IMG/VR virus record: IMGVR_UViG_3300037067_017690 | Location: 1 to 64,000 of that record | DNA: 64,000 nt | Source of the DNA: a virus | Lineage: Duplodnaviria; Caudoviricetes | Strand: one strand, 5' to 3' | Part shown: positions 1,247 to 48,570 of the stretch, one piece after another | Numbering within the stretch: the first letter of the stretch is position 1 | Layout: the number at the start of each line of letters is the position of its first letter | Notes under the pieces: generated by a model | Database searches by the model: none | Seen by the model: the letters and a program-made list of their open reading frames with translations, nothing else | What the model was told of the DNA's origin: nothing | Translations under genes and position numbers: made by a program

Positions 1247-1586
1247 TGATCATAATGCTTTAAGATATATTTTATCTTTCGATTTAAAAAAATATGGGTA
1301 TGAAGTTCTTGAAGCAAAGAATGGAGAACAAGGCATCAAAGTTGCCGAAACTGAAAATCCAGATTTAATACTTCTTGATGTGATGATGCCAGGAGAAGAA
1401 GGGTTTAAAGTTTGCAGAAAATTAAAAAAATCGGATAAAACAAAAGATATACCAATAATATTTATGACAGCAAAAGCTCAAAGAAAAGATATTCAAGAAG
1501 GATTGCAAGCTGGAGCACTTTGTTATATGGTGAAGCCATTTAAGTTTGATGAGCTATTATCTAAGATAAAGGAAGTCATTGGATGA
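1227..1586 (+). CDS. Single-domain response regulator receiver (CheY/PhoB-like)
   Basis: ILIVDD acidic pocket, LILLDVMMP phosphoacceptor Asp, FMTA, VKPF; TTG start after AGGAG. Confidence 0.93.
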   Translation: MKILIVDDHNALRYILSFDLKKYGYEVLEAKNGEQGIKVAETENPDLILLDVMMPGEEGFKVCRKLKKSDKTKDIPIIFMTAKAQRKDIQEGLQAGALCYMVKPFKFDELLSKIKEVIG

Positions 1587-2878
1587 AAATATCACAATTC
1601 ATTAAACAGACTGCGACTACAGAATATACAAATAAACCACTTCAATATTTATTGACATTACCTCCGATGTCTAAAATTTTGGCAACCAGAGAAGATAATG
1701 AACGTGATTATTTTACGATATTTGGAAAAAAAGGTCTGTATGAATTTGCTGACAAAAAAGATTTGACGATGAAAGAATTAATAGATTTATTACCAGATAA
1801 AGAAGTAAAATATAGATTTGAAATAGAATTCGAAGAAGCTCCTCATGATTATGTTTCTGAAGCAAAAACTTTGCAAAGTATTATTCAAAGAAATCCGAAA
1901 CCTGAATTGATTGATAAATTAAAAGAAGTCACTTTGAAAACAAATAGCCCTAGTCTTTGTTATGATTATGCTAAAAATGTTATCAAAGGAAGATGGCCAG
2001 AAGCTGAACCGATAATAGCTCAAGATCCCGAATATGTCCCAATGTATGCAAAGAATATGATGAATGGTAAACGTTGGTCAGAAGGCGAAATAGGGATGTT
2101 GAAATCTGATCATTTTGATAGAAATTTTCATCTTTGCAAATATGCACAGTATATTATTAAAGGAAGATGGCCAGAAGCGGAAAGATTATTGTTGAATGGC
2201 AAAAAATTGTATAGAGCAGGAGAATATGCAGCAGATATAATTGGTGGACGTTGGCAATTATTGGAACAAGAAATTTTGAAGACTCCAGATAAAATGGATA
2301 CCGGACAATTAATCTTATATTGCAATGAATGTATTGGTGGACGTTGGTCAGAATTAGAAAGAAACATGCTAAGAATTATTGATTATCATACAGCTTTTGA
2401 TGAAACTAATTCGCAACTTAATTCTTTACGTTATCTCGCATATGATTATGTCAAAGAAGTTATAAAAGGTCCATGGCCAGAAATTGAGAGATATTTGTCA
2501 TACGATGGGGGTCTTTATCGAAAATATAAACAAATTACAAAATCTTTCGAAATAGGTATGGGGTCTACGGTGAATTTGCATTCAAGATCATTATCTCAAT
2601 ATTTAAAACATGGTGAAGAATTTCTCAAGAAATTTCGTGGTGCTAAATATGTTCCAGGAAAATACATGAGAGATATGACGAAACAAATTGATCTTTCGAA
2701 AGAAATAGATAACATTCCTCCACATCACCAGGATGGTTTTCTATTATATTTTGCAAATTGCCAAATGAATGGTGCATCTTTACCCGATCCAGCAAAAATC
2801 AGAAAATCCACTCTTGAAAAATGGAAATTAGCAAAAGATGCCATTGATAAAATGAGGAGTGAACAAAATGTGGGGTAA
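1583..2878 (+). CDS. Helical repeat protein, paralog of 2..1246 and 44150..44545; leader MKISQFIKQTA
   Basis: YAxxVIKGRWPEAE repeats; N-domain (L.YLLTLP.MSKI, GKKGLY) shared with 44150; C-domain shared with 2..1246. Confidence 0.85.
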   Translation: MKISQFIKQTATTEYTNKPLQYLLTLPPMSKILATREDNERDYFTIFGKKGLYEFADKKDLTMKELIDLLPDKEVKYRFEIEFEEAPHDYVSEAKTLQSIIQRNPKPELIDKLKEVTLKTNSPSLCYDYAKNVIKGRWPEAEPIIAQDPEYVPMYAKNMMNGKRWSEGEIGMLKSDHFDRNFHLCKYAQYIIKGRWPEAERLLLNGKKLYRAGEYAADIIGGRWQLLEQEILKTPDKMDTGQLILYCNECIGGRWSELERNMLRIIDYHTAFDETNSQLNSLRYLAYDYVKEVIKGPWPEIERYLSYDGGLYRKYKQITKSFEIGMGSTVNLHSRSLSQYLKHGEEFLKKFRGAKYVPGKYMRDMTKQIDLSKEIDNIPPHHQDGFLLYFANCQMNGASLPDPAKIRKSTLEKWKLAKDAIDKMRSEQNVG

Positions 2879-3776
2879 AATAATCAAAACTACTAAAAAT
2901 GCATTGATGGTCGCATTTAGGGATTTTTTAAAAATGTATGATGAAGTTCAATTCAAAGAAATAGAATTCCTTGAAGAATTCCCGTCCGATCAAAAAGATT
3001 CTCGTAATGCGTGGGTGCAAATCATTGATAAATTTCCTCAGATAGATCAACATCTTCCAATGATTGCTATTTCATCAGCTTCTGGAACAATCAAAAAAAC
3101 TTCTTTTGGATTATCTGCCGGAAGTTCTTGTACTCGTGTAAATGAACAAGGTAAATTAATTGGTGCTTGGGATATAGGAATCAGAGCTCAATTAACTGTG
3201 TCAATTGATATTGGTTGTGCAGGTCATAATGAACGAACAAATCTTACAGATGCTTTATCACATTTTATTTTGATTTATTCAGAAAAATATCAAAATCAAT
3301 TATTTCCACCTGTGAATTCTCCAGAACGTTGGAAAATAGTGTTGCCGAATCAGGTAGATCATGGAGGAGAAAGTGAAATTCCCCGTTCTGACGACGGTGT
3401 GGATCGAGTATATATTTCAAGTCTTTCCTTTCAGATAGATTTTGAAGATTGGATTACTCGTGAGATAGAACCTCTTAAAATGGGATCTCTTACTGGTAGT
3501 GCTCACCAGATTACTCAGGGTGTATTTTTTGCCGAAGATACTAAATTCTCATTTAAAGTTGGTGAAGTCTATAATTATAATGAAAAGGTTACTCAAGGTA
3601 CTGATATTATTTGGGAATTACCTCCTACTCCAGCAAATGAAAAAGATTTAGCAACTATTGAACAAGATGGAACTTTTACAGCGTTATTTCCAGGAAAGAT
3701 TCAATTAAAAGCAACTGATCATTTAAATGGGAATGTATCAGTTTTAAATATCACAATTACTGGAGAAAGTGTATAA
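2859..3776 (+). CDS. Putative tail terminator/neck protein with C-terminal Ig-like domain
   Basis: LPMIAIS motif, Big_2-like end (ATIEQDGTFTALFPGKIQLKAT); upstream of sheath. Start may be the second Met (MWGK). Confidence 0.5.
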   Translation: MNKMWGKIIKTTKNALMVAFRDFLKMYDEVQFKEIEFLEEFPSDQKDSRNAWVQIIDKFPQIDQHLPMIAISSASGTIKKTSFGLSAGSSCTRVNEQGKLIGAWDIGIRAQLTVSIDIGCAGHNERTNLTDALSHFILIYSEKYQNQLFPPVNSPERWKIVLPNQVDHGGESEIPRSDDGVDRVYISSLSFQIDFEDWITREIEPLKMGSLTGSAHQITQGVFFAEDTKFSFKVGEVYNYNEKVTQGTDIIWELPPTPANEKDLATIEQDGTFTALFPGKIQLKATDHLNGNVSVLNITITGESV

Positions 3777-3904
3777 ATTTCTGTGATTTAATTTTCTTTT
3801 CCACAAATAAGGCAATTTGTATTCATATAAGAATAATACCTTCAAAATAGATTAGAATTGTTATTATCTGAAGTAAAATTGTTAAAATACGGAGGAAATA
3901 TCAA

Positions 3905-10902: not shown

Positions 10903-10911
10903 ATGACTATA

Positions 10912-10926
10912 CGGTATTACTCAATT
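10912..10926 (+). promoter_or_regulatory. Putative leaderless promoter (CGGTAT-N9-ATG)
   Basis: cggtattactcaatt immediately precedes ATG 10927; same geometry at several other genes; no SD. Confidence 0.5.
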
Positions 10927-12849
10927 ATGGAATGCCCTATTTGTCATAAAATTCATAATGGTAAATTATTTTGTAGTAAGACATGTTTTCACAGCAAAGA
11001 AGGTCAACAAATAATGCTTCAGAAAAGGACTCAAACAAACCTTATCAGAATCGGATATGAAAACATTAACCAATCTCCCGAATTTAAAAAACAAAAAGTT
11101 TTGAATTGTGTTGTAAAACATGGTGTCACAAGTACCAATCAACTTCAATCTGTAAAAGATAAGAAGAAGAAAACTTATTTAAATCATCCTAAGGAATTTT
11201 ACGAAGAGATTCAGGATAAAAGAATAGCCACAACACTTGATATCTATGGTGTAGAAAATGTGTTTCAAGCTGATAGCATAAAACAACAAATTTCAGAAAC
11301 AATAAATGAAAAATATGGCAAAGATCATATTTTTCAGACTGACCATTTTAAAGAAAAATCTGCTCAAACTGATTTAGAAAAATATGGTTGTGATCGTCGA
11401 GCAGATTTGAAAGTAATTCAAAAAGGAAAAGATACTAATTTTAAGAAATATGGTGTCACTCATCCGTTAAAATTACAAGAATTTTTGGATAAACGAGAAC
11501 AAACTTGTTTAAAAAAATATAAAGTAAAAAATGTGAATTTAGTCCCTGAAATAAGGGAAAAAATTGAACAAACATGTCTTGAAAAATATGGGTTTATTAA
11601 TGCAATTCAATCTGAATATGTGCAAAATAAAGTGCAAGAAACTAGAAGAAAAAATGGTACTTTTAATACATCAAAGCCAGAAATAGATATTTTCCAAATT
11701 TTAAAAAGTGTATATCCAGATGTTAAAGCCCAATATAAATCGGATCCTCGTTATCCATTTCATTGTGATTTTTATATACCATCGGCAGATTTATTTATAG
11801 AATTACAAGCATTTTGGACGCATGGGAAAAAAATTTTTGATGAAAATGATGAGGAATGTAGACAGGTTTTAAACAAAATGGAAGAAAAATCTTTGACAGA
11901 TAAAATTTATAAAAATGCAATTTATACATGGACTGGTGGAGATGTTAAAAAAAGATTGATAGCAAAAGAAAATAAATTAAATTTTTTAGAAATATTTGAT
12001 TATAACTATGATAATATTTTGATTCAGATAAATCGTGTTATTAATGGTTTATCTTTGTCTTTTTCTCAGGAAGAACTTTTGAGAGAATATCAACTTTTTA
12101 CAATAAAAGATGGTAATTATCAGGCAATGCCTAATAAAAATAAAATAATTTTAAATTTTCAAAAACATTTTTTTGAAAATGAAATTGAATTATTTAAAAC
12201 AGATCATATCCGAAGAAGGAAATTAATAGAAAATAGATGTTTTTATTTAGATAAAAAAGAATCAGAATTAACAGATGCAGACTTATTAAGAGGATTTAAA
12301 AGATCGGGAATTTATCGAGGATTTAGTCATTTTTCTCCTTTATGGATCAAGGCATTTATTGAAGAATTTAATATCAATTCTCTTTATGATCCTTGTGGAG
12401 GATGGGGACATAGATTATTAGGAACAAAGAAAATACAATATATTTATAATGATTCAGATATCAGAACTTACGAAGGAGTAAAAATTATTGCCAATTTTTT
12501 AAAAATGGATAATAAGATATTTTATAATAATGATGCGAGTCAATTTACACCAATTGAAGATTATGAAGCAGTTTTTACTTGTCCTCCTTATTATAATATT
12601 GAAGATTATGGAAATCAATTTATTAATTATGAAGAATGGCAGAAATGGTTTGACCAATTAGTGAAATGTTCTGTTAAACAAAATACTAAATATTTTGCTT
12701 TTGTGATAAATAGTAATTTTGAAAAAGATGTTCAATTAATTTGTCAACAAAATAATCTGAGATTTTTAAAACAAATATTTATTCAAGATCATAAATCTCA
12801 TTTTAATAAACAAACCAATTCAGAATCACTTTATATCTACAATGTATAG
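10927..12849 (+). CDS. Zn-ribbon + EKYG-repeat + PD-(D/E)xK-type endonuclease fused to a DNA amino-methyltransferase
   Basis: CPIC..FCS..C; about 23-aa T.LEKYG repeats; SKPE...CDFYIP...FIELQAFWTH nuclease; LYDPCGGWGHR (SAM motif I) and FTCPPYY (motif IV). Start reassigned to MECP. Confidence 0.8.
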   Translation: MECPICHKIHNGKLFCSKTCFHSKEGQQIMLQKRTQTNLIRIGYENINQSPEFKKQKVLNCVVKHGVTSTNQLQSVKDKKKKTYLNHPKEFYEEIQDKRIATTLDIYGVENVFQADSIKQQISETINEKYGKDHIFQTDHFKEKSAQTDLEKYGCDRRADLKVIQKGKDTNFKKYGVTHPLKLQEFLDKREQTCLKKYKVKNVNLVPEIREKIEQTCLEKYGFINAIQSEYVQNKVQETRRKNGTFNTSKPEIDIFQILKSVYPDVKAQYKSDPRYPFHCDFYIPSADLFIELQAFWTHGKKIFDENDEECRQVLNKMEEKSLTDKIYKNAIYTWTGGDVKKRLIAKENKLNFLEIFDYNYDNILIQINRVINGLSLSFSQEELLREYQLFTIKDGNYQAMPNKNKIILNFQKHFFENEIELFKTDHIRRRKLIENRCFYLDKKESELTDADLLRGFKRSGIYRGFSHFSPLWIKAFIEEFNINSLYDPCGGWGHRLLGTKKIQYIYNDSDIRTYEGVKIIANFLKMDNKIFYNNDASQFTPIEDYEAVFTCPPYYNIEDYGNQFINYEEWQKWFDQLVKCSVKQNTKYFAFVINSNFEKDVQLICQQNNLRFLKQIFIQDHKSHFNKQTNSESLYIYNV

Positions 12850-13422: not shown

Positions 13423-14067
13423 ATGAATCTTCGTAAAATATCAAGTTTAATTAAAGCACAATTAAAACGAATGACAATACACGTAAAAGAACTTCAATTG
13501 ACACCTCAATTATTAATAAAATTGAGAGAAGCAGGAATTGGACCTAATTCTTTTGTTTGGGCTGATTTATCAAGTGCCAATTATCCATTGACTCCAAATT
13601 ATGTTGAAATGAAACTTCATCAATTATTTAATAAATTGGACATTGGAGCAATTTATGGAATTGACAAAGATAATAATTGGTTTTTATTATTAGAAAAATT
13701 TGGTGGATATGATGTATACACAAATCAAAAAACAAGTGTTTGGTATACTAATTTATCATTAGATAGAGCTATACGATTATTACCTAAGAATAATTATTTT
13801 CTTTATTTTATTCCTACAGAAAATCAAATTCTTGAACAACCTGTTTACGAATTAGATGAAGATGTAGAAAATATACGTATGGTAGCAAAAAGAAAAAGAA
13901 GTGGGCAAGGAAAAGAATGTGATAATTGCGGTCATTATTTAAATGAGGATGATTATGATCGTCCTGGTTCATGGAGTTATAGATGCCCAAATTGTGAATT
14001 CAAATATAATCATGGAGGCAGAACTCCAGAAGAACAAGTAAAAAGATTTTTGAAAGAACAAAATTAA
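13423..14067 (+). CDS. Leader-bearing protein, paralog of 21617..22189, with C-terminal Zn ribbon
   Basis: MNLRKISSLIKA leader; N.FVW.D..S.N..L...Y..MKL.Q...GAIYG shared with 21617; CDNC...CPNC. Confidence 0.75.
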   Translation: MNLRKISSLIKAQLKRMTIHVKELQLTPQLLIKLREAGIGPNSFVWADLSSANYPLTPNYVEMKLHQLFNKLDIGAIYGIDKDNNWFLLLEKFGGYDVYTNQKTSVWYTNLSLDRAIRLLPKNNYFLYFIPTENQILEQPVYELDEDVENIRMVAKRKRSGQGKECDNCGHYLNEDDYDRPGSWSYRCPNCEFKYNHGGRTPEEQVKRFLKEQN

Positions 14068-16432: not shown

Positions 16433-16605
16433 GCTCCTCTGCTCCATAATCCACTTCCCCAAAATTTAGATTGCTTCAAATCTTTAAGAAATGATTATAT
16501 ACTCTTTATTGCCGAAAAGTCTATAGAGCCAGGTCTCAGCCAATAGACCATACGTATCACATCTGGTTGGTACAAGCCTTCAGCCTTGTGCTGAAAGTAG
16601 TTGAC
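16433..16605. mobile_element. IS200/IS605 remnant: Y1 transposase fragment (-) plus right-end hairpin (+)
   Basis: Minus strand reads SAIKSI*SFLKDLKQSKFWGSGLWSRGAY (IS200 TnpA-like motif with a stop). Plus strand ends CAAGCCTTCAGC-CTTGT-GCTGAAAGTAGTTGAC, an IS605-type end hairpin. Confidence 0.7.
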
Positions 16606-16626
16606 TATACACTTATAATTTTTATT

Positions 16627-22189: not shown

Positions 22190-22428
22190 AATTAAAGGTG
22201 ATATCAAATCAAATTCGTAAACAAGCAGATTTTAGTATGAATGGTCACCTTGAAATTGGACAAGGTTTAGCAAGAAAAATGAAAGAAGGATTAAGAAATT
22301 TAAAAGATCTTATCGATTCCATTCCGGAAAATTCTGTTGATCAAATGACAATCGATGAATATACAGAAATAATGCCTCAGGTTACACAAGTAAAAAATGC
22401 TTTATACGATTTTTTCCATTCGCTATGA
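22186..22428 (+). CDS. Small leader-bearing helical protein
   Basis: MKLKVISNQIRKQA leader. Confidence 0.7.
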   Translation: MKLKVISNQIRKQADFSMNGHLEIGQGLARKMKEGLRNLKDLIDSIPENSVDQMTIDEYTEIMPQVTQVKNALYDFFHSL

Positions 22429-30895: not shown

Positions 30896-32824
30896 TTGAA
30901 GAAGAAAAAAGATCAAATTCACGATAAATTAAATACAACTACTGCCCAGCTTGTTAGTAAGAATATTATAAAAACAAAATCTGGTGCTATGATGAAACGT
31001 GGCGGTGGGGCTGCTTACACTTATAATCCTGCTTATTATAATTTTAATCAGGGCAGACCAGAGGTAATGTTTGGTCCGAAAACTTCTCAGGAACAACATA
31101 GAGTTTGGAGAACACTTTATCAATTTGATCCAATAGCAGGAACTTGTATTGATTTATTTTCCGAATTGCCTTGGTCAGATTTCATTATTTCAAATGTTGA
31201 TGATCCAAGAATCAAAGAAATTTTTGAAATACAAAAAGATCGATCAAATTTATTGGATGTATTACCTGATATTACTCGCGAATATTTAACTCTTGGGAAA
31301 GCAGTTATTCATAATACGTTTGATGGTAATAATTATTTATGGAAAGATATTGTTCTTCAGAACCCTGATTATATTGAAGTGGTTAATATGCCGATATTTT
31401 CTCGAGAACCATTTTTATCATTAATCCCTGATCCTCAATTAAAAATGTTCATCAATAGTAAAGACCCTAGAATAAAAGAAATGTTTAGAGGATTACCTTC
31501 AGATGTATTAAGAAAATTGCTTGTTAATAAAAAGATTCCTTTATCAAATGCTAATACTACATATTTGTATAGAAAAATTTCTGGATATGATTACCAAGGA
31601 ACTTCTTTGATGACTCGTTTATATAAAATTGTAATGTATGAAGATGCAATTTATAATGCTTCTATTGCAGTTGCTCAGAGAAATGCTGCTCCATTAAGGT
31701 TATTTAAACTTGGTGATGCAAATAGTGGATGGATTCCTTCTCCAGAACAAACTCAGCAATTTATTGATATGCTGATGCAAGCTGAATCAGATCCTTATTC
31801 TGTTTTAGTATATCATTATGGTGTAGAAGTAGATTATGTTGGAGTAAGTGATAGACTGATGGGGATATCTCGTGAATGGGATTTTGTATCTCAAGTGAAA
31901 TTTATGGCACTTGGAATGTCAAGAGAACTTGTATCTGGTGAATCTACTTATTCTTCAATGCAAGGATCTTTACAAGTAATGACAGAAAGATTAAGAACAC
32001 TTCGTCAAAAAATCGAGAATGCATATATTATTGAAAAATTTTTTAAACCAATTGCTAGAGTTCATAAATTTTATAAAAGATCAGCTGCAGAAATCAAACA
32101 TAATGTACGAATTCAAAAAAATATAAATGATCAAGATCGCGATTTAATTTTGCCCACAATCAAATGGAATAAAGTTCTTGAAGGTACAAAAGATACTTCA
32201 TTGTTAAGTATTTGGCGTGAATTACAAACAATGGGGGCGTTATCAGTTAGAACTTATGCGGCTGGTGCAGGAATAGATCTTGATGAAGAACGTAAAAATA
32301 TTAAAGAAGATAACGAATGGCTGAAAAAGCATCAAGCTGAAATGACTCCTCCTCTCCCTCCTGGTGGTGGGGATCAAGGTTTTAATTTAGGGGGATCTTT
32401 AAAAGATAAAAAAGCATTTAATAAAAAAGAAAATATTTTAAGAAATCTTAGTCAGATAAAAAGGCTCAAAAAAAGTGCTGGTGGAAATAGTGTTCCTTCC
32501 GAAGTTTTTGATACAAAAATTTGGGACAAAAATGGAACTTATAATAACATAAATTTCCAAGATGTTGAAGAAATCGCAAGAATTGCTCTTGAAAAAAATC
32601 TAGATTGGGATCAAGTTGAAAGCGAATTAATCAAAGAAGGATTATCAGATTCTAAGATTGCTACAACAAGAGATATTTTTGAACAAGAAGGTATAGTTGA
32701 AAGAGAATATGCTAAAAATAAAAAATATGAACAAGCAAGTGTTAATAATCTTAATAAAGTCGTTGATAATCATGATAATGATGGTCCTAGTCGTTTAGGA
32801 ACACTTTTTCTTTCTGGTAAGTAA
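30896..32824 (+). CDS. Portal protein
   Basis: DPIAGTCIDLFSELP, PLRLFKLGD, LPTIKW; lies between terminase and protease. Confidence 0.82.
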   Translation: MKKKKDQIHDKLNTTTAQLVSKNIIKTKSGAMMKRGGGAAYTYNPAYYNFNQGRPEVMFGPKTSQEQHRVWRTLYQFDPIAGTCIDLFSELPWSDFIISNVDDPRIKEIFEIQKDRSNLLDVLPDITREYLTLGKAVIHNTFDGNNYLWKDIVLQNPDYIEVVNMPIFSREPFLSLIPDPQLKMFINSKDPRIKEMFRGLPSDVLRKLLVNKKIPLSNANTTYLYRKISGYDYQGTSLMTRLYKIVMYEDAIYNASIAVAQRNAAPLRLFKLGDANSGWIPSPEQTQQFIDMLMQAESDPYSVLVYHYGVEVDYVGVSDRLMGISREWDFVSQVKFMALGMSRELVSGESTYSSMQGSLQVMTERLRTLRQKIENAYIIEKFFKPIARVHKFYKRSAAEIKHNVRIQKNINDQDRDLILPTIKWNKVLEGTKDTSLLSIWRELQTMGALSVRTYAAGAGIDLDEERKNIKEDNEWLKKHQAEMTPPLPPGGGDQGFNLGGSLKDKKAFNKKENILRNLSQIKRLKKSAGGNSVPSEVFDTKIWDKNGTYNNINFQDVEEIARIALEKNLDWDQVESELIKEGLSDSKIATTRDIFEQEGIVEREYAKNKKYEQASVNNLNKVVDNHDNDGPSRLGTLFLSGK

Positions 32825-32967: not shown

Positions 32968-33129
32968 ATGGGTTTTAAAAAGACGGGTCCAGTAGAAATT
33001 ACACACGTATTTACATTAGATGAAGAAAAAGATTCAACTAATTTAGGATTAAATGTTGAAGCCTTTGAAAAAGCTAAACAAGAAAAAAAGGAAGGGGAAC
33101 AAAATGTTCAAGAAAATCGGAACAATTGA
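32968..33129 (+). CDS. Small protein upstream of the prohead protease
   Basis: GAGGA SD before MGFKKTG; N-terminus resembles that of the protease. Confidence 0.55.
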   Translation: MGFKKTGPVEITHVFTLDEEKDSTNLGLNVEAFEKAKQEKKEGEQNVQENRNN

Positions 33130-33973
33130 TATATCAAATGTTATAGAATATAATTTTCTTCGTGACGAATTTTCGAAACATGCTTCTATTAATCATAAAG
33201 CAAATATAAATCTGTTAGATTCTAATATTTTTAAAAAAGTTTCAAAACTTTATAATATTTCTTCTGATCCAAAGGATTATGTCTACGCAGTTGCACGCGG
33301 TGTGACCACATTGGTTAGAGGAGCAAGAGCTCAGGAAACTACAAATGCAAATGGTGATGCATTTCCAAGAGAAGAATTACTTCGTAAAAGAAGTGATGAT
33401 ATATTTGTGTACCAAACATTTAATTTAAAACCGCTTCACACAGAACATAAAGCTGATGATCCTAAAAAAGCAGCTGGTTTTTTATTAGATAGTCATTATA
33501 GCCAATTAAATCCAAATGATGAACATATTGATATCATCGTTTGTTGTGATAAGAAAAAAGACAAAGAAGGAGCTATGGGAATTTCTTCTGGTCGAGTAAA
33601 ATCTTTTAGTATGGGTTGCAATGTTGATTATACAGTGTGTTCTATTTGTGGAAAAAAAGCCGCAAAAAAAGCTGATTATTGCAATCATATTAGATTTATG
33701 AAATGCAGTTATGTAAATGGGAATTATTGTTTTGAGGAATGTTATGGAGTTGAATATTCTGAATTTTCTAAAGTGCGTCATCCCGCTGATAGAACTGCAC
33801 TCACAGAACAAATTTTATGTAAAGCTGCTTCTTCTAAGTCTGCCGTCACTCTCTTAGAGGATTTAGGTTTTAATAAAAAAGCAAAAATGGAAATTATGGG
33901 GTTCATACGGAATAATATGGATAATATGCCTGATTCAATGTTGCAATTGTGTGAGAAACTAATAGTCAACTAA
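33104..33973 (+). CDS. Prohead maturation protease
   Basis: NANGDAFP..EL, HTEH, KSFSMGC (putative catalytic His/Ser), CSICG...YCNH, EFSKV..PAD; start at MFKKIG after GGGG SD. Confidence 0.8.
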   Translation: MFKKIGTIDISNVIEYNFLRDEFSKHASINHKANINLLDSNIFKKVSKLYNISSDPKDYVYAVARGVTTLVRGARAQETTNANGDAFPREELLRKRSDDIFVYQTFNLKPLHTEHKADDPKKAAGFLLDSHYSQLNPNDEHIDIIVCCDKKKDKEGAMGISSGRVKSFSMGCNVDYTVCSICGKKAAKKADYCNHIRFMKCSYVNGNYCFEECYGVEYSEFSKVRHPADRTALTEQILCKAASSKSAVTLLEDLGFNKKAKMEIMGFIRNNMDNMPDSMLQLCEKLIVN

Positions 33974-33987: not shown

Positions 33988-35037
33988 ATGATTAAGAAAG
34001 CTCAAGGAGAGAAGGGAAATGATCCTCGCAAAGATTTACCAGAAGGTACTGGCGTTGGCGGATCTTATTTGAATACAGCTATTCAAGATAAGAATCCTGC
34101 TGATTTTCATAAAGACGCACCGCCTCCTGTGTTATCAGATGCGAAGGATATCGCTGATGCTAAAGATAAAGCAATTAGCGAACTTCAACCCTCTATGAGA
34201 AATCCTTCGACAGATCCTAATGAAAGGGTTCCAGAACCTGAGGATATGTCTAAATTGAGCATAGAAGAAAAAGGTTTAGCTGATGAACTTCGTGCAAGAA
34301 GAAAAGCTAGATTGAATTTTGTTGCTCAAGAAGAAAAAAAGGATGAGGAAGAGGAAAAGAAGGAAGAGGAAAAGAAATCTAAGAAATCTCAGACTGAAGA
34401 AAAAAAGGATGAGGAAGAAAAGAAATCTAAGAAATCTCAGACTGAAGAAAAAAAGGATGAAGAAGAGGAAAAGAAGGAAGAAGAGGAAAAGAAATCCAAG
34501 AAAGCTCAGACTGAAGAAAAAAAGGATGAGGAAGAGGAAAAGAAGGAAGAGGAAAAGGAGAGTAAAAAAAGCAGTTTAGTTCGTGAAGCAAATGAAAATT
34601 TTATTCGCAAACATAAAAAATGCATGAGACTCGCTAGTGTCGAACTCAACAAAAATCTTGTTGAAAATCCAATTAAGGCAGAATTATTCGACAAATTTGC
34701 TACACTTCTGGGATATAATGACGAAAATGAAATTGATGGTCATACTGCTTCTCTTGTTCAAAATGCAATTGAGATAGCATTTGAAAATGCTGGTGAAAAA
34801 TGGTTCAACAAATTAATGGAAAGAACCGCAAGTTACATAGGTTTTAATGATGAATCTTTAGTTCAAGTTGAAGCTACATATGCTGGATTAAAAACTGCAA
34901 AAGTTGTTTCTGCTGAAGGTGTTGATGTAAAAGAAGCTGCAAGACTTACTGAAGGTAATGTTCCAGTTCTTACAAAAACATCAAGCATTAAAGGTTACAA
35001 AAATGTTCTTGATGGTGCATTTACTATTAAGAAATAA
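33988..35037 (+). CDS. Capsid scaffolding protein
   Basis: Lies between protease and capsid genes; E/K-rich repeats; many K-x-A/S motifs. Confidence 0.72.
   Translation: MIKKAQGEKGNDPRKDLPEGTGVGGSYLNTAIQDKNPADFHKDAPPPVLSDAKDIADAKDKAISELQPSMRNPSTDPNERVPEPEDMSKLSIEEKGLADELRARRKARLNFVAQEEKKDEEEEKKEEEKKSKKSQTEEKKDEEEKKSKKSQTEEKKDEEEEKKEEEEKKSKKAQTEEKKDEEEEKKEEEKESKKSSLVREANENFIRKHKKCMRLASVELNKNLVENPIKAELFDKFATLLGYNDENEIDGHTASLVQNAIEIAFENAGEKWFNKLMERTASYIGFNDESLVQVEATYAGLKTAKVVSAEGVDVKEAARLTEGNVPVLTKTSSIKGYKNVLDGAFTIKK
34324..34572 (+). repeat. Coding tandem repeat (A/S)QTEEKKDEEE(EKKEEE)KKSKK, 4 copies
   Basis: Near-identical CTCAGACTGAAGAAAAAAAGGATGA units. Confidence 0.85.
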
Positions 35038-35791: not shown

Positions 35792-36931
35792 ATGAATAAT
35801 CCTTATAGAAAATCTCCAGTTATTACGGAGCAAATAAAGACAGCAGGTGGTGCTAGTTCGCTTATTAGTGAATTCAATATGCCAGCTGGTAAAACTCTGA
35901 AAACTGGAACGGTAGATTACTCGAAGGAATCAGTTTTCAATAAAACTGGTGAACTTAACGCATCTAATAAAAGAGATGCACTTTCACAGATTCAGCACAT
36001 TCTGACACATAAAGATGCTTGGATGGCTGCTGAACTTGGAAAGAAAATTGCTGCTGATTCAAGCATGTTCAATAATGCTGAAGTTGGTCAGGCAATTCGG
36101 GAAGCGTTCAATGATCCGACTGGTGAAGGTCATGCCATTATCGGTCAGCAATTATTGAATCCGATTAAAGAAATAATCGACTATGAAGGTTGGGTCCGTA
36201 AGGTTCTCAAAGTTCGTACTGTCGGTGATGGTGAAATCGTACGTTACGATAAAGATATTCATGTTGTTGCATGGGTTGTTGCAGAAGATGCAGAAACTCC
36301 AGAATCAAGAGTTACTGGCAAATACATCTATCCACCTGAATTTGAAGTTACAGCTCGTCCTACAGTGTTGTTAAAGGATATATTCCAGAAACAATACGAC
36401 GTTCTTGCAAGAGCTCAGGACAAAGCTCGTCAAGGTATTGAATACAAGGAAGATAGTGCTGGTATTGCTCTTTTGAGAAAAGCTGCTGTCACAGTTAATG
36501 ATGTGACTTATTTTGCTAATCTCAACCTCAATTCACTTGAAGATATCAAATATCAGGTTGAAAAAAACCGTTTGGTAGTTGATAAATTCTTAATCAACAG
36601 ACGTGAAATGGGAGACATTATTAAATATATGTCAGCTCAGGTTGATCCAGTTACTCAGAGAGAAATGATTCTTGCTGGTTATGTTGCAACAGTTCTCAAT
36701 GCTGCTATTATTACATCAGCTGGTACAGGCGTGTATGAAGTAGTTGCTCCTGGTGAAGTGTTTGCATGTACTGCTCCTGATTACATGGGTGGTATGCCAA
36801 TCAGACAGGATCTGATGAGTGAACCATTTAGCCAGAGCCTTGAAGGCAAACCTGCTCGTGGTTGGATGTATTATGAATTAATTTCTCAGGTGATCGTTAA
36901 TCCGAAGGCTGTATCCGTTGGTCGCAAATAA
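35792..36931 (+). CDS. Major capsid protein (HK97 fold)
   Basis: PIKEIIDYEG..RK, RYDKD, PPEFEV, C-terminal GWMYYELISQVIVNPKAV; followed by a terminator. Confidence 0.85.
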   Translation: MNNPYRKSPVITEQIKTAGGASSLISEFNMPAGKTLKTGTVDYSKESVFNKTGELNASNKRDALSQIQHILTHKDAWMAAELGKKIAADSSMFNNAEVGQAIREAFNDPTGEGHAIIGQQLLNPIKEIIDYEGWVRKVLKVRTVGDGEIVRYDKDIHVVAWVVAEDAETPESRVTGKYIYPPEFEVTARPTVLLKDIFQKQYDVLARAQDKARQGIEYKEDSAGIALLRKAAVTVNDVTYFANLNLNSLEDIKYQVEKNRLVVDKFLINRREMGDIIKYMSAQVDPVTQREMILAGYVATVLNAAIITSAGTGVYEVVAPGEVFACTAPDYMGGMPIRQDLMSEPFSQSLEGKPARGWMYYELISQVIVNPKAVSVGRK

Positions 36932-37010: not shown

Positions 37011-37550
37011 ATGAATAATAGATCATCAGAAATTAAAAAGGTAGCAGCTGTTCGTGTTGCCAGCGATATGTTGACAGCATTGGACAAAACTGCAGAAGAT
37101 TTTGAAAAGCAGGGTAATCGTACTGCTGCTTATCAAGTCGATCTTGCTCGTCATTTCCTCAAGAAAGCTATTGAAGAAGGCGAATTAGACGGCATCGAAG
37201 TTCCAGAAGATCTTCTCAGTAACGACCTTTTCGAAAACGTAATTGATGATGATCCGTATAGTCCTTTTCAGGTGGAAGATAATCTTGATGATGAAATCAT
37301 TTTGAAATCTAATCCAGATGCTGAACCTGTATTGGATGACGATCTTAATAGCTTAGATCTTGACGATCTAGATGATCTAGGTGTTTCGGGAAATACAAAG
37401 CCAGACTTTGAACCGGAATGTTCTGGTCGTTGTGGCGGATTAAAGAAATTCGATTACGAGAAGTGTGCTTATTTAGAAAATGATGAAAGTTCCAAAAGAG
37501 CTAGTCGTCTTTCAAAAATGGCAGAAAGTTATAGAAGATCTCGTAGGTAA
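37011..37550 (+). CDS. Acidic leader-bearing head-associated protein
   Basis: MNNRSSEIKKVA; LDKTAEDFEKQG...AYQVD helical motif; Asp-rich. Confidence 0.65.
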   Translation: MNNRSSEIKKVAAVRVASDMLTALDKTAEDFEKQGNRTAAYQVDLARHFLKKAIEEGELDGIEVPEDLLSNDLFENVIDDDPYSPFQVEDNLDDEIILKSNPDAEPVLDDDLNSLDLDDLDDLGVSGNTKPDFEPECSGRCGGLKKFDYEKCAYLENDESSKRASRLSKMAESYRRSRR

Positions 37551-38662: not shown

Positions 38663-39076
38663 ATGAAAATAGCATATTCTCTCACAGCACAAAAACCTAA
38701 TTGGCTCAATATAATTTTCTGGTTAACAGATTATATAAATGATGAATGGATTATTGTTCAACAACCTACATATTTAGGATCAATTGAATTAAATGGTAGT
38801 AGTCTTATTACAAATATAGAATCTTCAGTTAATGGATTTTATCCATTTAAAATAAAAGTCCACGCTTCTAAATTTGATGCTTTGGCTACAGGTGGTATAG
38901 GTAAAATTAAAATGATCATTGGGTCATTGAGTACCGAATTAGAAAATCCTCCAATGCATGTGTTGAAACAAACGGATAAACCAATCGATGAAAGTTCAGT
39001 AATAGAAATTAGTAAACAAAAAGGACTATGGGATTTATACCCATGGAACCAAGAAAATGATGATTTTACTAATTAA
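38663..39076 (+). CDS. Hypothetical protein
   Basis: Start reassigned to MKIAYS, after the terminator and TAAAAT-N7. Confidence 0.55.
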   Translation: MKIAYSLTAQKPNWLNIIFWLTDYINDEWIIVQQPTYLGSIELNGSSLITNIESSVNGFYPFKIKVHASKFDALATGGIGKIKMIIGSLSTELENPPMHVLKQTDKPIDESSVIEISKQKGLWDLYPWNQENDDFTN

Positions 39077-40283
39077 AGCAAATCTTTTTCTGCGTCAAAG
39101 GGATCATATCAGAGTCAAAAATTTTTCTAACTCCTGCTCCTTTGTGTTTAATAATTTTAGAAGCATTATAATCTGCTTCTAATTCTATTCCACATTTCAG
39201 ACACTTGAAGAGTGACTGACTCACTCGATTGTCCTCATGTCTGAATCCACATTCTGAACATTCCCGACTCGTAAAAGCAGGATTGACTATAGTAAAAAGA
39301 ATACCATTCTCTTCACAAAATCTGTTCAATTTCTTGTGGGTAAAATTATATACCCACCTAACATATTTATTATCACACTTCTTACGCTTCTTCAAATCTC
39401 GGAGATCTTCTACTTTAATTTCTTTAATATTTTTCAAACTGAGATTATTCACTAAATGATTAATATATTCATTTCTATAAATCAATGATTGCCTAAAATT
39501 TTTAGATCCGGAATAATTTTCTGTTGGTTGCTTCTTGCGAGAAATTTTATCATAAATTTTATGGAGATCTTTAGTTCCAATATATTCTTGTCTTGAAGTA
39601 ACTAGAAGATTTATAAATCCCATATCGATTCCTAAAATATCTCCTGAAGATTTCAAAGGAACTTCTTTTTCGTGAATAAACTTTAACCAATATCTATCTT
39701 GAAGATCTTTGCGAAGAAATATAGTTTTCTTGTGAGTCCAATCTTTATACTTATTAGAATGTTTATGGTGTTTTATAGGAAGATTAAAAGTATGAGCATA
39801 TTTTTTATTCCTCATATAGGGAGATCTAATCAGAATAAATTCATCAAAATGAATGGAATCCTTAGAATCCCACATTGTCTGATCTAATTCTATTTGAATT
39901 GTTTTGAAATCTGGAATCTTTAATTTTTCAATAATACCAATTTCTTCGAATCTCTTCTTAAGAAATACTAATTGTCTATTTTTCTTAAGAAAATATTTCA
40001 TACATTTTTTATATTTATGTAATTTATATTTCCAGAAATTTCGTCTAAGATGTTCTATTTCTAAAGATGCATGTTGATAGCATTGTTTTCTCCATTGAGA
40101 ATGTTGAAGTTTATTGATTGGCAACAATTTAGTGGACAACATCTTCTTATGAGGAAGTTCTCTAGAAATAATCTTTTCCATGTAAAATTTAAGATCCGTC
40201 TCATAATCCTTAAATAATTGATCAAGAATCAGAGTCTTCTTAGAAGTCTGAAATTTTAAAAGATGTTTAGATGTTCGAATCAT
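39069..40283 (-). CDS. tnpB: Stand-alone TnpB RNA-guided endonuclease
   Basis: RuvC LGIDMG, VEDL, ADYNAS all intact; CSEC/CLKC Zn finger; no adjacent tnpA. Start reassigned to MIRTSK. Confidence 0.88.
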   Translation of the reverse strand: MIRTSKHLLKFQTSKKTLILDQLFKDYETDLKFYMEKIISRELPHKKMLSTKLLPINKLQHSQWRKQCYQHASLEIEHLRRNFWKYKLHKYKKCMKYFLKKNRQLVFLKKRFEEIGIIEKLKIPDFKTIQIELDQTMWDSKDSIHFDEFILIRSPYMRNKKYAHTFNLPIKHHKHSNKYKDWTHKKTIFLRKDLQDRYWLKFIHEKEVPLKSSGDILGIDMGFINLLVTSRQEYIGTKDLHKIYDKISRKKQPTENYSGSKNFRQSLIYRNEYINHLVNNLSLKNIKEIKVEDLRDLKKRKKCDNKYVRWVYNFTHKKLNRFCEENGILFTIVNPAFTSRECSECGFRHEDNRVSQSLFKCLKCGIELEADYNASKIIKHKGAGVRKIFDSDMIPLTQKKICFN

Positions 40284-40900: not shown

Positions 40901-41152
40901 ATGATTTGAAAAATTTATAAAAAGATATAAAAATTTCTCGTATACAAATAATAATTCATATACATTTTTTGAAAATTAAATTTTCAAAATGGGTAAACCA
41001 TCTACCCTTGCTTGTTTAGCAATTTTAAATTGCTTATATTTCTCTATTCTAATTTAGCTATGCTAAATTTTATAAATCTACTCAAAGTTGATTTATAAAA
41101 AATATTATAAATCATATAAAATTTTATAATAAAATTAAATATTAATCTTTAT
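40901..41152 (-). mobile_element. Non-autonomous mini-IS607 (ends plus omegaRNA-like scaffold, no ORF)
   Basis: Both ends and internal hairpins match the IS607 at 59518..61469; bounded by AT dinucleotides. Confidence 0.85.
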
Positions 41153-42029
41153 AATTTGGTCCAGAAATATCTACTAATTCAAATCCATTCTTTAAATACA
41201 CATTTCCATTACTGAATCTTCTATCTGCATAAGTAATTAAAGATTTTGGAGAATAAATCTTAATAAAGTATGATAGCAACTTACTAAATCCACCCATCAC
41301 ATTAGTATTCAATTTATTACAATACCTCAATAATTCATATTCATACTTCTTGTTATATCTTGGTTTACCAAATGTTGCCAATGCAACTAATTTTTCATTA
41401 AAAAATAATCCTAAATTGATAGATGATTTGACTTCATCTTGAATATGATTGTGATATAAAAATTCAGAACAATCTTTATATTTGAGTTGTTTTATTTCAC
41501 ATTTTCTAGCATGGATTTTTTCTTTGATTAATCCTAATTTAGTTAATATTATGGATTTTACAATTTCTTGTTTTTGAATCCATTCTGATTCAAATATGTG
41601 AATTATTTGAATTCCTTTATTTAAGAAATATTCTGATTTATTGAGATGATATGTGGGAATTTTTCCTCCTCCGATTTCGGAATGCCAATAAAGCCCATTG
41701 AATTCTATCCCTATATTTTTTGAAGGAATATAGATGTCTAATTCATATTTGTATTTCTTTTCATAATATCTTTTGTTGCATTCAATTGAAATGTGCTCTT
41801 GGAGCCAATTTTGAAGTTCTGATTCTATGTTTGAAAAGCCAGAAAATATTGGATAACATTTAAGACATCTAGGTATAATTCCATTCAAAATTGATTGATT
41901 AAAAATATTATTGCACTTTATGCATTGCCAAGGATAATTTTCATGACCATTAGTATAATCTTCTAATGAAAATAATGGCCTGATTGTTTTAAAATTCAAA
42001 ATTTTATTATAGAATTTTTTATTCTTAGT

Positions 42030-42660
42030 TTTTAATATTTTTGTTTTAATTGGATTAGATTGTTGTGGATAATTTGTTCCATATTTTTTAAGATTGGTTT
42101 GTTTTATTTGCTTTTTTATGGATTCATGTTGAAAATTCCATTCACAACCATATTTTTTAAGATTAGTTTGTTTTATTTTATTTTCAATTTTTTCAGATTG
42201 TCTTGGATTTTTTACTCCATATTTTTCAAGATTGGTTTGTTTAATCTTTTCCTTAGTTTCTTCTGATTGAAAATTATGCTCTACTCCATATTTTTCAAGA
42301 TTAGTTTGTTTAATCTTTTCTCGAATTTTTTTAGAGCTCAGGACATTTTCACAACCATATTTTTCAAGATTAGTTTGTTTTATTTTATTTTTTATTTTTT
42401 CAGATTGAAATGGATTTTCTACTCCATATTTTTTAAGATTAGTTTGCTTGGATTTTTCTTGTACATATTTATTTTTCATAGAACATTTATGTCCATATTT
42501 TTCAAGATTGGTGGCATTTTGTTTGGCCTTTACAAATATGTTTTGCGAAGAATGTTTTACTCCATATTTTTCAAGATTAGTTTGTTTTATTTTATTTTTT
42601 ATTTTTTCAGATTGAAATGGATTTTCTACTCCATATTTTTTAAGATTAGTTTGCTTGGCG
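42030..42660 (-). repeat. 69-bp coding tandem repeats (KQTNL(E/K)KYG...), about 9 copies
   Basis: 23-aa period; a near-exact block duplication 207 bp apart. Confidence 0.85.
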
Positions 42661-42806
42661 AATTTTAATTTATACGTCATCCCTTCCTTAGAAAAAGAAC
42701 ATTTTTGAGAACAAAATGTTTTATGATTATGATTTTTTCGACATACTGGGCATATACTCATAAAAAGAATATACCGCAATTATAATTTTTCAAAAGAGGA
42801 ATTTTT

Positions 42807-44141
42807 ATGGCCGAAAATGACAATTTTAATTTATTGAAAGCAATTCAAGGTAGAAGAATTGTTTTTGAACGCATATTTCATGATGGATCTGGTTCGCCTC
42901 GAGATCCAGATAATTTCGGAATCGGCAATGTAAGTGAACCCAATTTTGTAATTAAAAGTCCAAAACAAGTCCAAGTATATATGGGAATCGGTGATAGATT
43001 AGACACAGGGAAATTTAGATTTGTATGGAATACTCCGATTGATGCTCAACCAGGAGAAGATTGGCAAATCGAATATGGTATGACAATATCAGGCACTTAT
43101 AGAACTCAAAAAGAAAAATTTACAGTGATTGATGTTGCAGATGTCGAAGATGTTGGTGCGGAATTGCATGAAGCAGAACAAAAAGATGAAATATTATTTT
43201 ATCTCGAGAATAATCCAGAATATTATGTAATTCAAATTGTGAGCAATGATGGTTATTTAATAGATCCAAATGAATTGGAAATTGTCATATTACCTGAAAA
43301 TGATGCCAATCCTGTTTATTCTGCAGGAAGACAAGATTTGAAATATTTATCAGTTGGAAAATATGAAGTAGAAATTCCAGGATTGTTACGAGGTGATTAT
43401 GTAATGATGTATCGTTACAGATATAATTCAACAACTCGTCCTGAAATGAAAGCTCTTAAATTAAAAATCATCACTCCATTACATTTTAGTGTAATGCCTG
43501 AAATTAGATTTCATATAGATAAAGCACAAAAATCTATGAATAAAGTTCAGGGATATACAGATGCAGATTTATTATTAGCTATGGGAATGTCAGCAGATTT
43601 CTTTAATGAACATCCTCCAAAATCAGCATTTGCCGCAGAAGAAGTAATGATGAATTGGAGATTATGTTTTATTTATGGTGCTTCTATCTGGGCATTAAAA
43701 GCTCAATATATTATGGAAGTTGATTTGAGTTTTGATTATTCAGGTCAAACAATTTCTTTGACTTATGATCATAAAGGGGATATTTCTTCTTATATTCAAA
43801 GTTTATTAGAAGAATATCGTACAATGATGGATAAAATCAAAACTCATATCGCTCTTGATAGTATTGCCGGAGGTTCCATCGGTAAAAGAGTTTATGGACC
43901 TGCAAATACATATATCTTTGGTGATCACGCAATTGATAGTGGAGGAGTTGGTCAAAATAATACTGGGAGAACGAATGCTGCTTCTCCAAGATCTGCAAAT
44001 CAAATAACGCAAAAAACTATAAATACAAATGATATGTATTGGTGGCATTCTGTTTATAAACGCAGTACGCCAAGTGGTCCTCAGAATAGTGCAAACCCTA
44101 TCGGGAATCCACGAATGTTTCCAGCAATTAAATTTCATTAA
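42807..44141 (+). CDS. Putative head-tail adaptor/neck protein
   Basis: Two Ig-like segments, then YTDADLL..., FNEHPP, FDYSGQTISL..D. Confidence 0.6.
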   Translation: MAENDNFNLLKAIQGRRIVFERIFHDGSGSPRDPDNFGIGNVSEPNFVIKSPKQVQVYMGIGDRLDTGKFRFVWNTPIDAQPGEDWQIEYGMTISGTYRTQKEKFTVIDVADVEDVGAELHEAEQKDEILFYLENNPEYYVIQIVSNDGYLIDPNELEIVILPENDANPVYSAGRQDLKYLSVGKYEVEIPGLLRGDYVMMYRYRYNSTTRPEMKALKLKIITPLHFSVMPEIRFHIDKAQKSMNKVQGYTDADLLLAMGMSADFFNEHPPKSAFAAEEVMMNWRLCFIYGASIWALKAQYIMEVDLSFDYSGQTISLTYDHKGDISSYIQSLLEEYRTMMDKIKTHIALDSIAGGSIGKRVYGPANTYIFGDHAIDSGGVGQNNTGRTNAASPRSANQITQKTINTNDMYWWHSVYKRSTPSGPQNSANPIGNPRMFPAIKFH

Positions 44142-44553: not shown

Positions 44554-45006
44554 ATGAATTTAAAAAATATTGCAAAAAAAATTGCTCAGATAACAAATTT
44601 TGATATAATGCAAGAATTAAATAAAGATCTTGAATTGGAATATGCTGCGGCAATTCAATACATTCAACACGCTGCTCAAATTAAAGGTGCAGAATTTTTC
44701 AGTGTACAAAAAGAATTAATAAAACATTCCGAAGAAGAAATGCAACACGCTGTAAAGATTAGTGAATGGATTAATACCCTTGGCGGCATTTCAACGATAG
44801 ATGTCGAAACAAGAAAAATTTCTGAGGATTCAATTGAAATGTTACATCAAGATTTAGATGGGGAAATGGATGCAATTTCACGATATAAAAATAGAATTGG
44901 CCAAGCTGAACAATTAGGTGAATTAGGATTAAAAAAAGATTTGATGGAAATTCTTTCTGAAGAAGAAGAACATCGTAGAGATTTAGAATTTGCAATAGGA
45001 TTATAA
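44554..45006 (+). CDS. Ferritin-like (bacterioferritin-type) di-iron protein with N-terminal leader
   Basis: LELEYAAAIQY, EEMQH, DGEMDAI..Y, EEEEH ferroxidase ligands; leader MNLKNIAKKIA. Confidence 0.88.
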   Translation: MNLKNIAKKIAQITNFDIMQELNKDLELEYAAAIQYIQHAAQIKGAEFFSVQKELIKHSEEEMQHAVKISEWINTLGGISTIDVETRKISEDSIEMLHQDLDGEMDAISRYKNRIGQAEQLGELGLKKDLMEILSEEEEHRRDLEFAIGL

Positions 45007-46870: not shown

Positions 46871-46882
46871 GGAGAGTGAAAA

Positions 46883-47104
46883 ATGTATTATGAAAAAATC
46901 AAAAAATTATTACATGAAGAATACGGAATTCAAAATTTTGATTCGAATACTAAATTTAGTGAACTTGGATTAGATTCGTTAGATAAAGTTGAAATTATCA
47001 TGTATCTAGAAGAAGAATTCAATATTGAAATTACTGATGAAGAAGGAGATAATGTTAACACAGTAAAAGATTTAGTTGAATTAATTCAAAATAAGAAAAA
47101 TTAA
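46883..47104 (+). CDS. acpP: Acyl carrier protein
   Basis: ELGLDSLDKVEIIMYLEEEFNIEITDEE with the phosphopantetheine Ser. Confidence 0.93.
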   Translation: MYYEKIKKLLHEEYGIQNFDSNTKFSELGLDSLDKVEIIMYLEEEFNIEITDEEGDNVNTVKDLVELIQNKKN

Positions 47105-47505
47105 ACATTTTGTATAACAACCTTTTTAGTATCAACAAAATAAAGTGCTCTAATATTATATCCATTATTTCCCCTCAGATGTTGATAACTATAATTTAAT
47201 CTATAGATAATAAATCTTTCATCTTGATTGACACCGATCAAAAATTCTATTTTCCCAGTTTTGATTATAGGTGCCAATACACCACAATCTTCAGATTTGT
47301 ATTCCATAACATCAATAAGTTGCATTTTATTAGATTGTAATAAGTCATCAAAAGAAAAATTTTTTAAATGACTATTTAAATTAATCAATGACAATTCTAA
47401 TCCCATTTCTTTTTGCGCAACTTTAAGACCTTCAACCAAATCTGTTTTAGCAATAGGATCTTTCGCCACTTTTTTTATTTCTTCTGCTATTTTTGAAAGT
47501 TTCAT
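47101..47505 (-). CDS. Leader-bearing hypothetical protein
   Basis: MKLSKIAEEIKKVA; YSYQH..GNNG motif. Confidence 0.75.
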   Translation of the reverse strand: MKLSKIAEEIKKVAKDPIAKTDLVEGLKVAQKEMGLELSLINLNSHLKNFSFDDLLQSNKMQLIDVMEYKSEDCGVLAPIIKTGKIEFLIGVNQDERFIIYRLNYSYQHLRGNNGYNIRALYFVDTKKVVIQNV

Positions 47506-48218
47506 TTTATTTCTCCGATATATGTATTTTTTGGTTTTGGTATTACCCTTGGTCTTGGACTTTTAAATGGATCATCTTCGGGAGTTGGTTTTGTTTTTAC
47601 AGGTGTACGTAAAGGTCTTGTCACAGGTTTCTTTTCAGGAGCATGAACTTGAGCTGTTTTATTTTCTTCTTTTAATTGTTTGAATGCTCTTATGAAATCA
47701 TCGTTTTCAATTTCTGAGAGAAATTTTTCAATATTAACTGCTCTATCATCGCGATTCTGAAATATCTTTAGTTTTGGTGAATAGCCATAAACTTCATTAG
47801 TTATTTTATTTCTAATGAAATAAAGACCACCTATTTTAAGATATTCTTCCATGTATCTTGGAGTTTGAAGATCCATTCTGGTTTGTTTGAAATAATGGCA
47901 ATCTTCTATTCCTGTCATTTCTTTAATTAACCATTCTGAGTCTTCATAAATTGAAATAGAAACTACTTTCCTAATTTCTTCAGCTATTTTTTCAAGATTC
48001 AAAAGTTTTTGCACTTTATCTGTTATATATATTTGACATTTTAGTCCATACTTATGTGGATCTGTAATAATAGATTTTAATTTATCATTCGGTAGTTTAA
48101 TTAATTTATTATACCATGATTCCATTTGTTTATCATTATATTTTCCACATTCTGCCATGCTTTCTCTAATCACTGAAATTAAATCCGATTTATCATCAGC
48201 TATTTTTTTAAGATTCAT
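47502..48218 (-). CDS. Leader-bearing mosaic protein with a second internal leader and Pro-rich tail
   Basis: Start reassigned to MNLKKIADD after AAGGA SD; internal LNLEKIAEEIRKVV. Confidence 0.72.
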   Translation of the reverse strand: MNLKKIADDKSDLISVIRESMAECGKYNDKQMESWYNKLIKLPNDKLKSIITDPHKYGLKCQIYITDKVQKLLNLEKIAEEIRKVVSISIYEDSEWLIKEMTGIEDCHYFKQTRMDLQTPRYMEEYLKIGGLYFIRNKITNEVYGYSPKLKIFQNRDDRAVNIEKFLSEIENDDFIRAFKQLKEENKTAQVHAPEKKPVTRPLRTPVKTKPTPEDDPFKSPRPRVIPKPKNTYIGEIK

Positions 48219-48228
48219 AAAATTTTCC

Positions 48229-48570
48229 TTATGCGACATTAAAATGTACAGATTTTGGAAAACCAGATGTCCACCCACCAATATAAAAATCTTTATCACT
48301 AAGCTTATCTGGTATTTTTCCATTAACTGCTTTTATAATTGCTGGTGGCACAACCTTATTTAATACTTCATCTATATTATTATCAAGAGTGTCAATTTCT
48401 ATATTGACTGGTTGTTTAATAATTTCTTGATTTTTCGTCTTATAAAATCTAATTTTTGCTTTTACAGTAAATGATGGCACTTGTATGTTAATGGTAGTTT
48501 TATCATCATACACATATCCTTCAAACTTTGCCACTTTTCTAATTCTTTCAGCTATTTTTTTAAGATTCAT
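48229..48570 (-). CDS. Leader-bearing hypothetical protein
   Basis: MNLKKIAERIRKVA after AAGGA SD. Confidence 0.75.
   Translation of the reverse strand: MNLKKIAERIRKVAKFEGYVYDDKTTINIQVPSFTVKAKIRFYKTKNQEIIKQPVNIEIDTLDNNIDEVLNKVVPPAIIKAVNGKIPDKLSDKDFYIGGWTSGFPKSVHFNVA

Follow-up and report, generated by a model that had tools for sequence, protein, structure and literature searches.

In phage T4, the internal proteins IPI, IPII, IPIII and Alt carry a capsid targeting sequence (CTS), and the prohead protease is gp21. The CTS is an N-terminal signal of about 10 residues; whatever protein it is fused to becomes encapsidated, and the head protease cuts the signal off (PMC7697877; PMC10052503). In phiKZ-like giant phages, head and ejection proteins have N-terminal propeptides of 20-254 residues (SPN3US gp245, motif A-x-E; PMC10052503). 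In the literature on the capsid targeting sequence, we found no description of such tags outside T4-like phages. Here, we describe a 14-residue N-terminal tag on 8-9 proteins with unrelated bodies, encoded in the first 64 kb (hereafter the window) of a single virus record, IMG/VR IMGVR_UViG_3300037067_017690 (105,868 bp, judged to be about 42% complete). We propose, tentatively, that a head-loading tag resembling the T4 CTS is the best explanation of this shared leader, a reading drawn from sequence comparison to which we give somewhat less than even odds.

The tag has the consensus M-N-L-K/R-K-I-A/S-x-x-I-K/R-K-V-A. The initial annotation of this DNA had described a leader on about a dozen unrelated proteins; the motif proved real and the bodies behind it unrelated, but the list of members was over-inclusive. 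All eleven coordinates that it gave are genuine start codons, most of them with a Shine-Dalgarno site, in gene calls made with our own heuristic (which is poor on genomes rich in guanine and cytosine, GC). When residues 2-15 of the 102 proteins of at least 60 residues in the whole record were compared pairwise with BLOSUM62, 6 pairs scored 26 or more; from shuffling within peptides, 0.33 would be expected, and none of 500 shuffles gave more than 3 (column permutations behaved alike). Six copies form the strong tag family, with starts at 48570 (-), 47505 (-), 22186 (+), 13423 (+) and 44554 (+) and an internal TTG copy at 48002 (-). In leave-one-out tests with a position-specific scoring matrix (PSSM), four of the six outscored all 30,143 other positions of the proteome and the 13423 copy was outscored by one position only; the 44554 (ferritin) copy is weak beyond its first seven residues, and 61 positions score as high. 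A scan of the genome with a 12-column PSSM bore out two further members from the initial list, the N-termini of 37011 and 19636 ranking first and third among the non-training positions of about 30,500, with the tag shifted by two residues in the former and by one in the latter. No further copies appeared in a six-frame scan of the whole record, and degenerate DNA patterns of the tag matched nothing in IMG/VR or GTDB genomes. The tagged genes are as follows.

48229-48570, minus strand: tagged gene with an ORFan body, 113 residues; its tag (48529-48570) is the best match to the consensus
47502-48218, minus strand: two-module gene, 238 residues; its N-terminus has the first 7 residues of the tag, and a full in-frame tag lies at 47961-48002, from TTG 48002
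47101-47505, minus strand: tagged gene, 134 residues, recognised by PSSM and pairwise comparison
44554-45006, plus strand: ferritin-like tagged protein, 150 residues (Pfam Ferritin, E 1e-22)
37011-37550, plus strand: tagged conserved post-capsid gene, 179 residues; the N-terminal extension ends in I-K-K-V-A
22186-22428, plus strand: tagged gene, 80 residues; its start codon and the upstream stop overlap as ATGA and are coupled
19636-20481, plus strand: tagged gene, 281 residues, with the shifted tag mentioned above
13423-14067, plus strand: tagged family-B protein, 214 residues, with a C-terminal zinc ribbon; a near-identical tag is found in metagenomic homologues

All copies of the tag begin at residue 2-3 after the start codon, and the sole internal copy opens with an in-frame TTG. 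This copy lies in 47502-48218, which looks like two tagged genes fused in frame, with a first module of 72 residues and a second of 166; module 2 could also be made from the internal TTG at 48002, ahead of which there is no Shine-Dalgarno site. With hydrophobic residues at positions 3, 6, 10 and 13 and Ala/Ser at 7 and 14, the tag makes a basic helix of strong amphipathicity. In 5 of the 8 N-terminal tags the hydrophobic moment reaches the 92nd percentile of N-termini or higher (it is lower in 22186, 48218 and 37011). The bodies of the eight proteins, which differ in predicted fold and length, have no BLASTP match among one another even at E <= 1. A search of 5.8 billion proteins gave no homologue for that of the 47101-47505 protein, the 13423 protein had no tblastn match in isolated phages, and for the 19636 protein neither tblastn against isolated phages nor a search of the ESM Atlas gave relatives. 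The 113-residue protein was considered as an ERF recombinase and rejected (its Pfam match is sub-threshold only and no other family matched); its AlphaFold2 (AF2) model is unusable, with a predicted local distance difference test (pLDDT) score of 35.

Only two tagged proteins, the ferritin-like and the post-capsid protein, have untagged relatives with which to compare them, and both times the tag comes as an addition. Relative to bacterial homologues of 140 residues, with which it is 62-67% identical, the ferritin-like protein has exactly 10 additional N-terminal residues, the first part of the tag, and AF2 models the tag as a helix projecting from the four-helix bundle. The initial annotation had counted metabolic genes among those lacking the leader, which is wrong in the case of this gene. 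The post-capsid protein has about 10 additional N-terminal residues relative to its orthologues in about 25 related loci, none of which has the extension. Because these two proteins have independent origins and untagged homologues, the tag has been grafted on.

Homologues elsewhere carry the tag as well. A profile of family B (the 13423 protein and its paralogue 21617), run over 1.84 billion representative proteins, gave four homologues, three of which begin with the tag. In P0244 and P0246 the tag is identical at 13 of 14 positions and the domains are 45% identical, while the P0246 tag agrees at 11 of 14 positions with that of the unrelated window protein 48570 (P0246 itself was not found in IMG/VR). 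In P0245, 80 residues are inserted between tag and domain, and the tag is still at the extreme N-terminus. The tag is thus constrained more strongly than the bodies behind it, and its position matters. The proposal, already made in the initial annotation, of a portable address tag on unrelated proteins is indirectly supported by the extension relative to homologues, by its retention in other phages and by the relatives' own tags described below, but for a shorter list of members.

Four related records (G001-G004), with capsid proteins 47-53% identical to that of the window, were taken whole; they and the window phage have only head-module genes in common. There is an excess of similar N-termini in G003 (205 kb) and G004 (183,765 bp, complete, with terminal repeats). 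These phages have a tag of their own, M-x-x-L/I-x-K/R/Q-A-I/V/L-x-x-L-A/S-G, on about 15 G004 and about 12 G003 proteins with unrelated bodies. The motif always begins at residue 3-5, M-N-W-L-K-K-A tags are seen in G004, and the G004 PSSM matches beyond the seed set lie at N-termini in 6 of 16 cases, against 3.8% expected. Few of the tagged proteins have Pfam matches, and those are nucleotidyltransferase-like, J-domain-like and SAM-lyase/DUF3293-like. RSL1 gave no comparable cluster save one pair, with the open reading frame (ORF) caller being unreliable on GC-rich isolates: the head-module proteins at 69735-70067 and 77367-77828 (W01) have a common 16-residue N-terminus ending in S/A-T-E-V, and one of them is encoded right after the protease gene. 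In G001 (L050-L057), several small genes between portal and terminase at 103-113 kb start with M-R/K-x-x-A-Q, which could be a very short tag variant; the count was not significant in a simple test.

Judging from its capsid protein, the window DNA is a fragment of an uncultured jumbo phage of the phage G / RSL1 / PaBG capsid lineage, since this protein matches isolates and about 200 metagenomic homologues, many of them on contigs of 120-205 kb. Among isolates it most resembles those of Virus Rctr197k (47%), RSL1, phage G, PaBG and Lu11. Virus Rctr197k (KX853510.1; L002 and L076) is the closest capsid-protein relative among GenBank phage records, and many of its genes are annotated only as misc_feature 'similar to ...', which suggests in-frame stops or an alternative genetic code. 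The head genes of the window are the following.

28519-30837, plus strand: large terminase (PHROG match)
30896-32824, plus strand: portal (PHROG match)
33104-33973, plus strand: head maturation (prohead) protease, the candidate processing enzyme (phrog_18299, E 2e-31)
33988-35037, plus strand: scaffold-like protein, charged and repeat-rich, with a clade-conserved basic helix at residues 100-114
35792-36931, plus strand: major capsid protein of the HK97 type (PHROG match and homologues)
42807-44141: head-tail connector (PHROG match)

A gene for an Ig-like decoration protein (PHROG match) is also found among them. The prohead protease has homologues in RSL1, PaBG, Lu11 and Sen-NF, with no Pfam or PDB sequence match to place its family. 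A transposase gene (39069-40283, minus strand) sits between the head genes, and three homing-endonuclease-like paralogues with internal repeats interrupt the structural block (10903-12849; 41142-42779, minus strand; and 94557-96401 of the record). In the same block, a protein of about 1000 residues (16567-19623) has a Peptidase_M10 (matrixin-type) zinc metalloprotease domain at residues 596-754.

Tagged genes keep company with head genes. In G004 all 15 lie in the head block from terminase to connector (Fisher p 3e-9), where they are flanked by terminase and portal or directly follow the portal or the post-capsid gene; of 13 in G003, 5 occupy the interval from portal to terminase (p 4e-4); and in the window record all 8 lie in the structural block at 1-48.6 kb (p 0.001).

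What might such a tag do? We favour loading into the phage head on account of the portability of the tag, its strict N-terminal position, its conservation above that of the cargo, its genome-specific variants and its location among head genes. In this proposal, the 14-residue basic amphipathic helix would be a portable address tag that has spread by duplication and grafting. Its hydrophobic positions 3, 6, 10 and 13 and small residues 7 and 14 would form the face that binds a partner, and the tag would dock the proteins that carry it to a component of the prohead (the scaffold core, the inner face of the capsid or the portal), such that they become enclosed in the head. The prohead protease may afterwards trim the tag. 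The partner that is bound, encapsidation, delivery into the host and any cleavage (after the Ala of K/R-x-A, as the initial annotation had it) are all predictions of this model.

Several findings weigh against head loading. Three tagged genes (47101-48570) lie on the minus strand beside replication genes, in an operon at 47101-51023 with an 813-residue gene and diverging from DnaE (a promoter and terminator scan of 43.5-51.5 kb gave nothing informative). In the AF2 model of the ferritin-like protein, the tag and helix A are one continuous helix with no linker between them. The tag of G003 and G004 is not recognisably homologous to that of the window, a PSSM of the former picking none of the latter, and its candidacy as a homologue was dropped. 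In addition, no comparable tag clusters were found in G001, G002, Sen-NF or PaBG, the ORF caller being unreliable on GC-rich isolates. Nor did a cleavage rule emerge from K/R-x-A, I-A/S-E or the capsid. The first 12 residues of proteins are enriched for the triplet K/R-x-A, with 23 occurrences where 6.2 would be expected (p about 2e-7), but it is common throughout, occurring 206 times in 31.8k residues. I-A/S-E shows no overall enrichment (26 against 22.6 expected), and T4-like cleavage after it was dropped, the N-terminal excess coming mostly from the tag itself. An alignment of capsid proteins showed no conserved cleavage site, and the closest capsid homologue (about 80% identical) is without the segment that holds the I-A/S-E site of the window capsid.

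K-K-A/S-Q occurs 4 times in the scaffold-like protein (33988-35037), against 0.25 expected, and K-x-A-Q is also present in the N-termini of 44554, 13423 and 21617. At the start of the scaffolds of about 22 relatives (L003-L039) stands a conserved basic helix that closes with K-K-A-Q, a feature that the selection of scaffolds partly builds in. In the window scaffold this helix of the clade is placed about 95 residues in, behind an N-terminal extension. The tag was considered as a mimic of the scaffold N-terminus and rejected: a PSSM of the 22 orthologues finds residues 100-114 of the window scaffold and fails to pick the tags, a further point against head loading.

The main rival to head loading is that the tag is a docking or recognition helix for some other shared partner, with its link to head genes reflecting co-expression only. 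Candidate partners are a modifying enzyme, a chaperone, an AAA+ protease (to which the tag would be an N-degron) and the membrane (to which a basic amphipathic helix would bind). The strong amphipathicity and the net charge of the window tags (+2 to +5) resemble those of membrane- or partner-binding helices, and the cargo, being ferritin-like, nucleotidyltransferase-like, J-domain-like and SAM-lyase-like, looks suited to host takeover and not structural. The acyl carrier protein gene at 46883-47104, with the ferritin-like tagged gene on one side and the three minus-strand ones on the other, also speaks for this rival. However, no enzyme next to the tagged genes came up as a candidate partner, the tags of G003 and G004 are nearly uncharged, making membrane binding unlikely as a general rule, and the tagged genes cluster strongly between those for terminase, portal and capsid. 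We thus regard it as possible but rather unlikely.

A second rival sees the tagged genes as fast-diverging tandem paralogues in which nothing but the first helix has survived, serving the structure and no common address function. Paralogy does exist within the set, between 13423 and 21617, and there are signs of common descent in the DNA itself. In 5 of 7 copies Leu 3 is encoded by CTT, a minority Leu codon with a share of 18% genome-wide, and the adjacent copies in 47101-48570, where four tags stand in tandem, have near-identical DNA over about 38 nt, ribosome-binding site (RBS) included. Because of this shared codon and shared DNA, the copies of the tag are taken to descend from one another by duplication or grafting. 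The independent origins of the ferritin-like and post-capsid proteins, the lack of BLAST similarity between bodies that differ in predicted fold and length, and a tag that outlasts the insertion in P0245 and is far better conserved than the domain it heads make this second rival improbable. Selection at the level of mRNA (for an A-rich, unstructured start), or the K/N/I-rich N-termini of a genome of about 30% GC, many of which open with M-K or M-N, is a very improbable source of the motif, as column-permuted N-termini give 0.3 pairs against the 6 observed, the heptad hydrophobic spacing is kept while the codons vary, and relatives at 42% and 56% GC have equivalent tags.

Three genes to which the initial annotation had given the leader belong outside the motif. 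Those at 1583 and 44150 are instead paralogues of one another (family A), with an N-domain of about 125 residues in common, and that at 21617 is an N-truncated, untagged paralogue of 13423 (family B; 43% identity over 126 residues).

1583-2878, plus strand: family-A paralogue, similar at its N-terminus to 44150 and 83234-84307 over about 125 residues
44150-44545, plus strand: truncated family-A paralogue with only the N-domain left, 84% identical to the start of 83234-84307
21617-22189, plus strand: family-B paralogue without the tag, directly after an HNH endonuclease gene

The N-domain of family A occurs three times, the third copy being at 83234-84307 of the record (minus strand), and their C-terminal parts are repeat-rich and variable. 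A 5'-open ORF at 2-1246 matches the C-terminal 45 residues of 1583-2878 and not its N-domain. The HNH endonuclease gene upstream of 21617-22189 lies at 21148-21594, and its insertion may have truncated the 5' end of the family-B gene.

If the tag does load proteins into the head, the set of injected proteins would be predictable from the first 14 residues, allowing guesses at the functions of ORFans, such as counter-defence or host takeover. It would also mean that T4-style cargo loading occurs in an unrelated capsid lineage, and the tag could serve as a small transferable peptide with which to package foreign proteins in large capsids. A broader reading, which we consider doubtful though worth stating, is that the phage G / RSL1-type lineage loads a changeable library of enzymes by means of genome-specific, co-evolving N-terminal address peptides for co-injection with the DNA; the ferritin-like, SAM-lyase-like, nucleotidyltransferase-like and J-domain proteins are candidate cargo. 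With tagged ferritin in its head, the phage would be the living equivalent of an encapsulin loaded with cargo, and phage capsids and encapsulins would be linked in function. Should the partner be something other than the capsid, the tag would still mark an undescribed hub interaction involving a dozen proteins per genome.

How does the window compare with the described systems? As in phiKZ and SPN3US, the phage is a jumbo phage, and prohead proteases of the SPN3US type process the N-termini of many head-associated proteins. Unlike the window tags, the phiKZ/SPN3US propeptides share only a cleavage motif, with no common leader. S/A/G-x-E is not conserved in the window tags, and is present in some G004 tags and in the two RSL1 N-termini.

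Encapsulins are similar in their HK97-fold shell and in having ferritin-like cargo with a short terminal extension that is absent from free-living homologues. Their cargo-loading peptides are usually C-terminal, have a different motif and are not cleaved; to our knowledge, the window tag motif is unlike known encapsulin peptides. Unlike an encapsulin, the shell of the window is a true phage capsid, accompanied by portal, terminase, protease, connector and tail genes, and the ferritin-like gene is 7.6 kb from the capsid gene.

The T4 CTS differs in having no sequence similarity to the window tags, with only an I-A-E triplet in common, in 3 copies. The window tags lack the conserved Glu cleavage site of the CTS and are known here from sequence alone, the capsid and protease are of the phage G / RSL1 / PaBG lineage, and the relatives tag more genes than T4 does (12-15 per genome). 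Like the T4 CTS, however, the window tag is short (10-14 residues), stands at the extreme N-terminus, heads unrelated bodies and is conserved while those bodies vary. As in T4, some of the tagged genes stand in tandem, the cargo looks host-directed, and the phage has genes for both a scaffold and a prohead protease.

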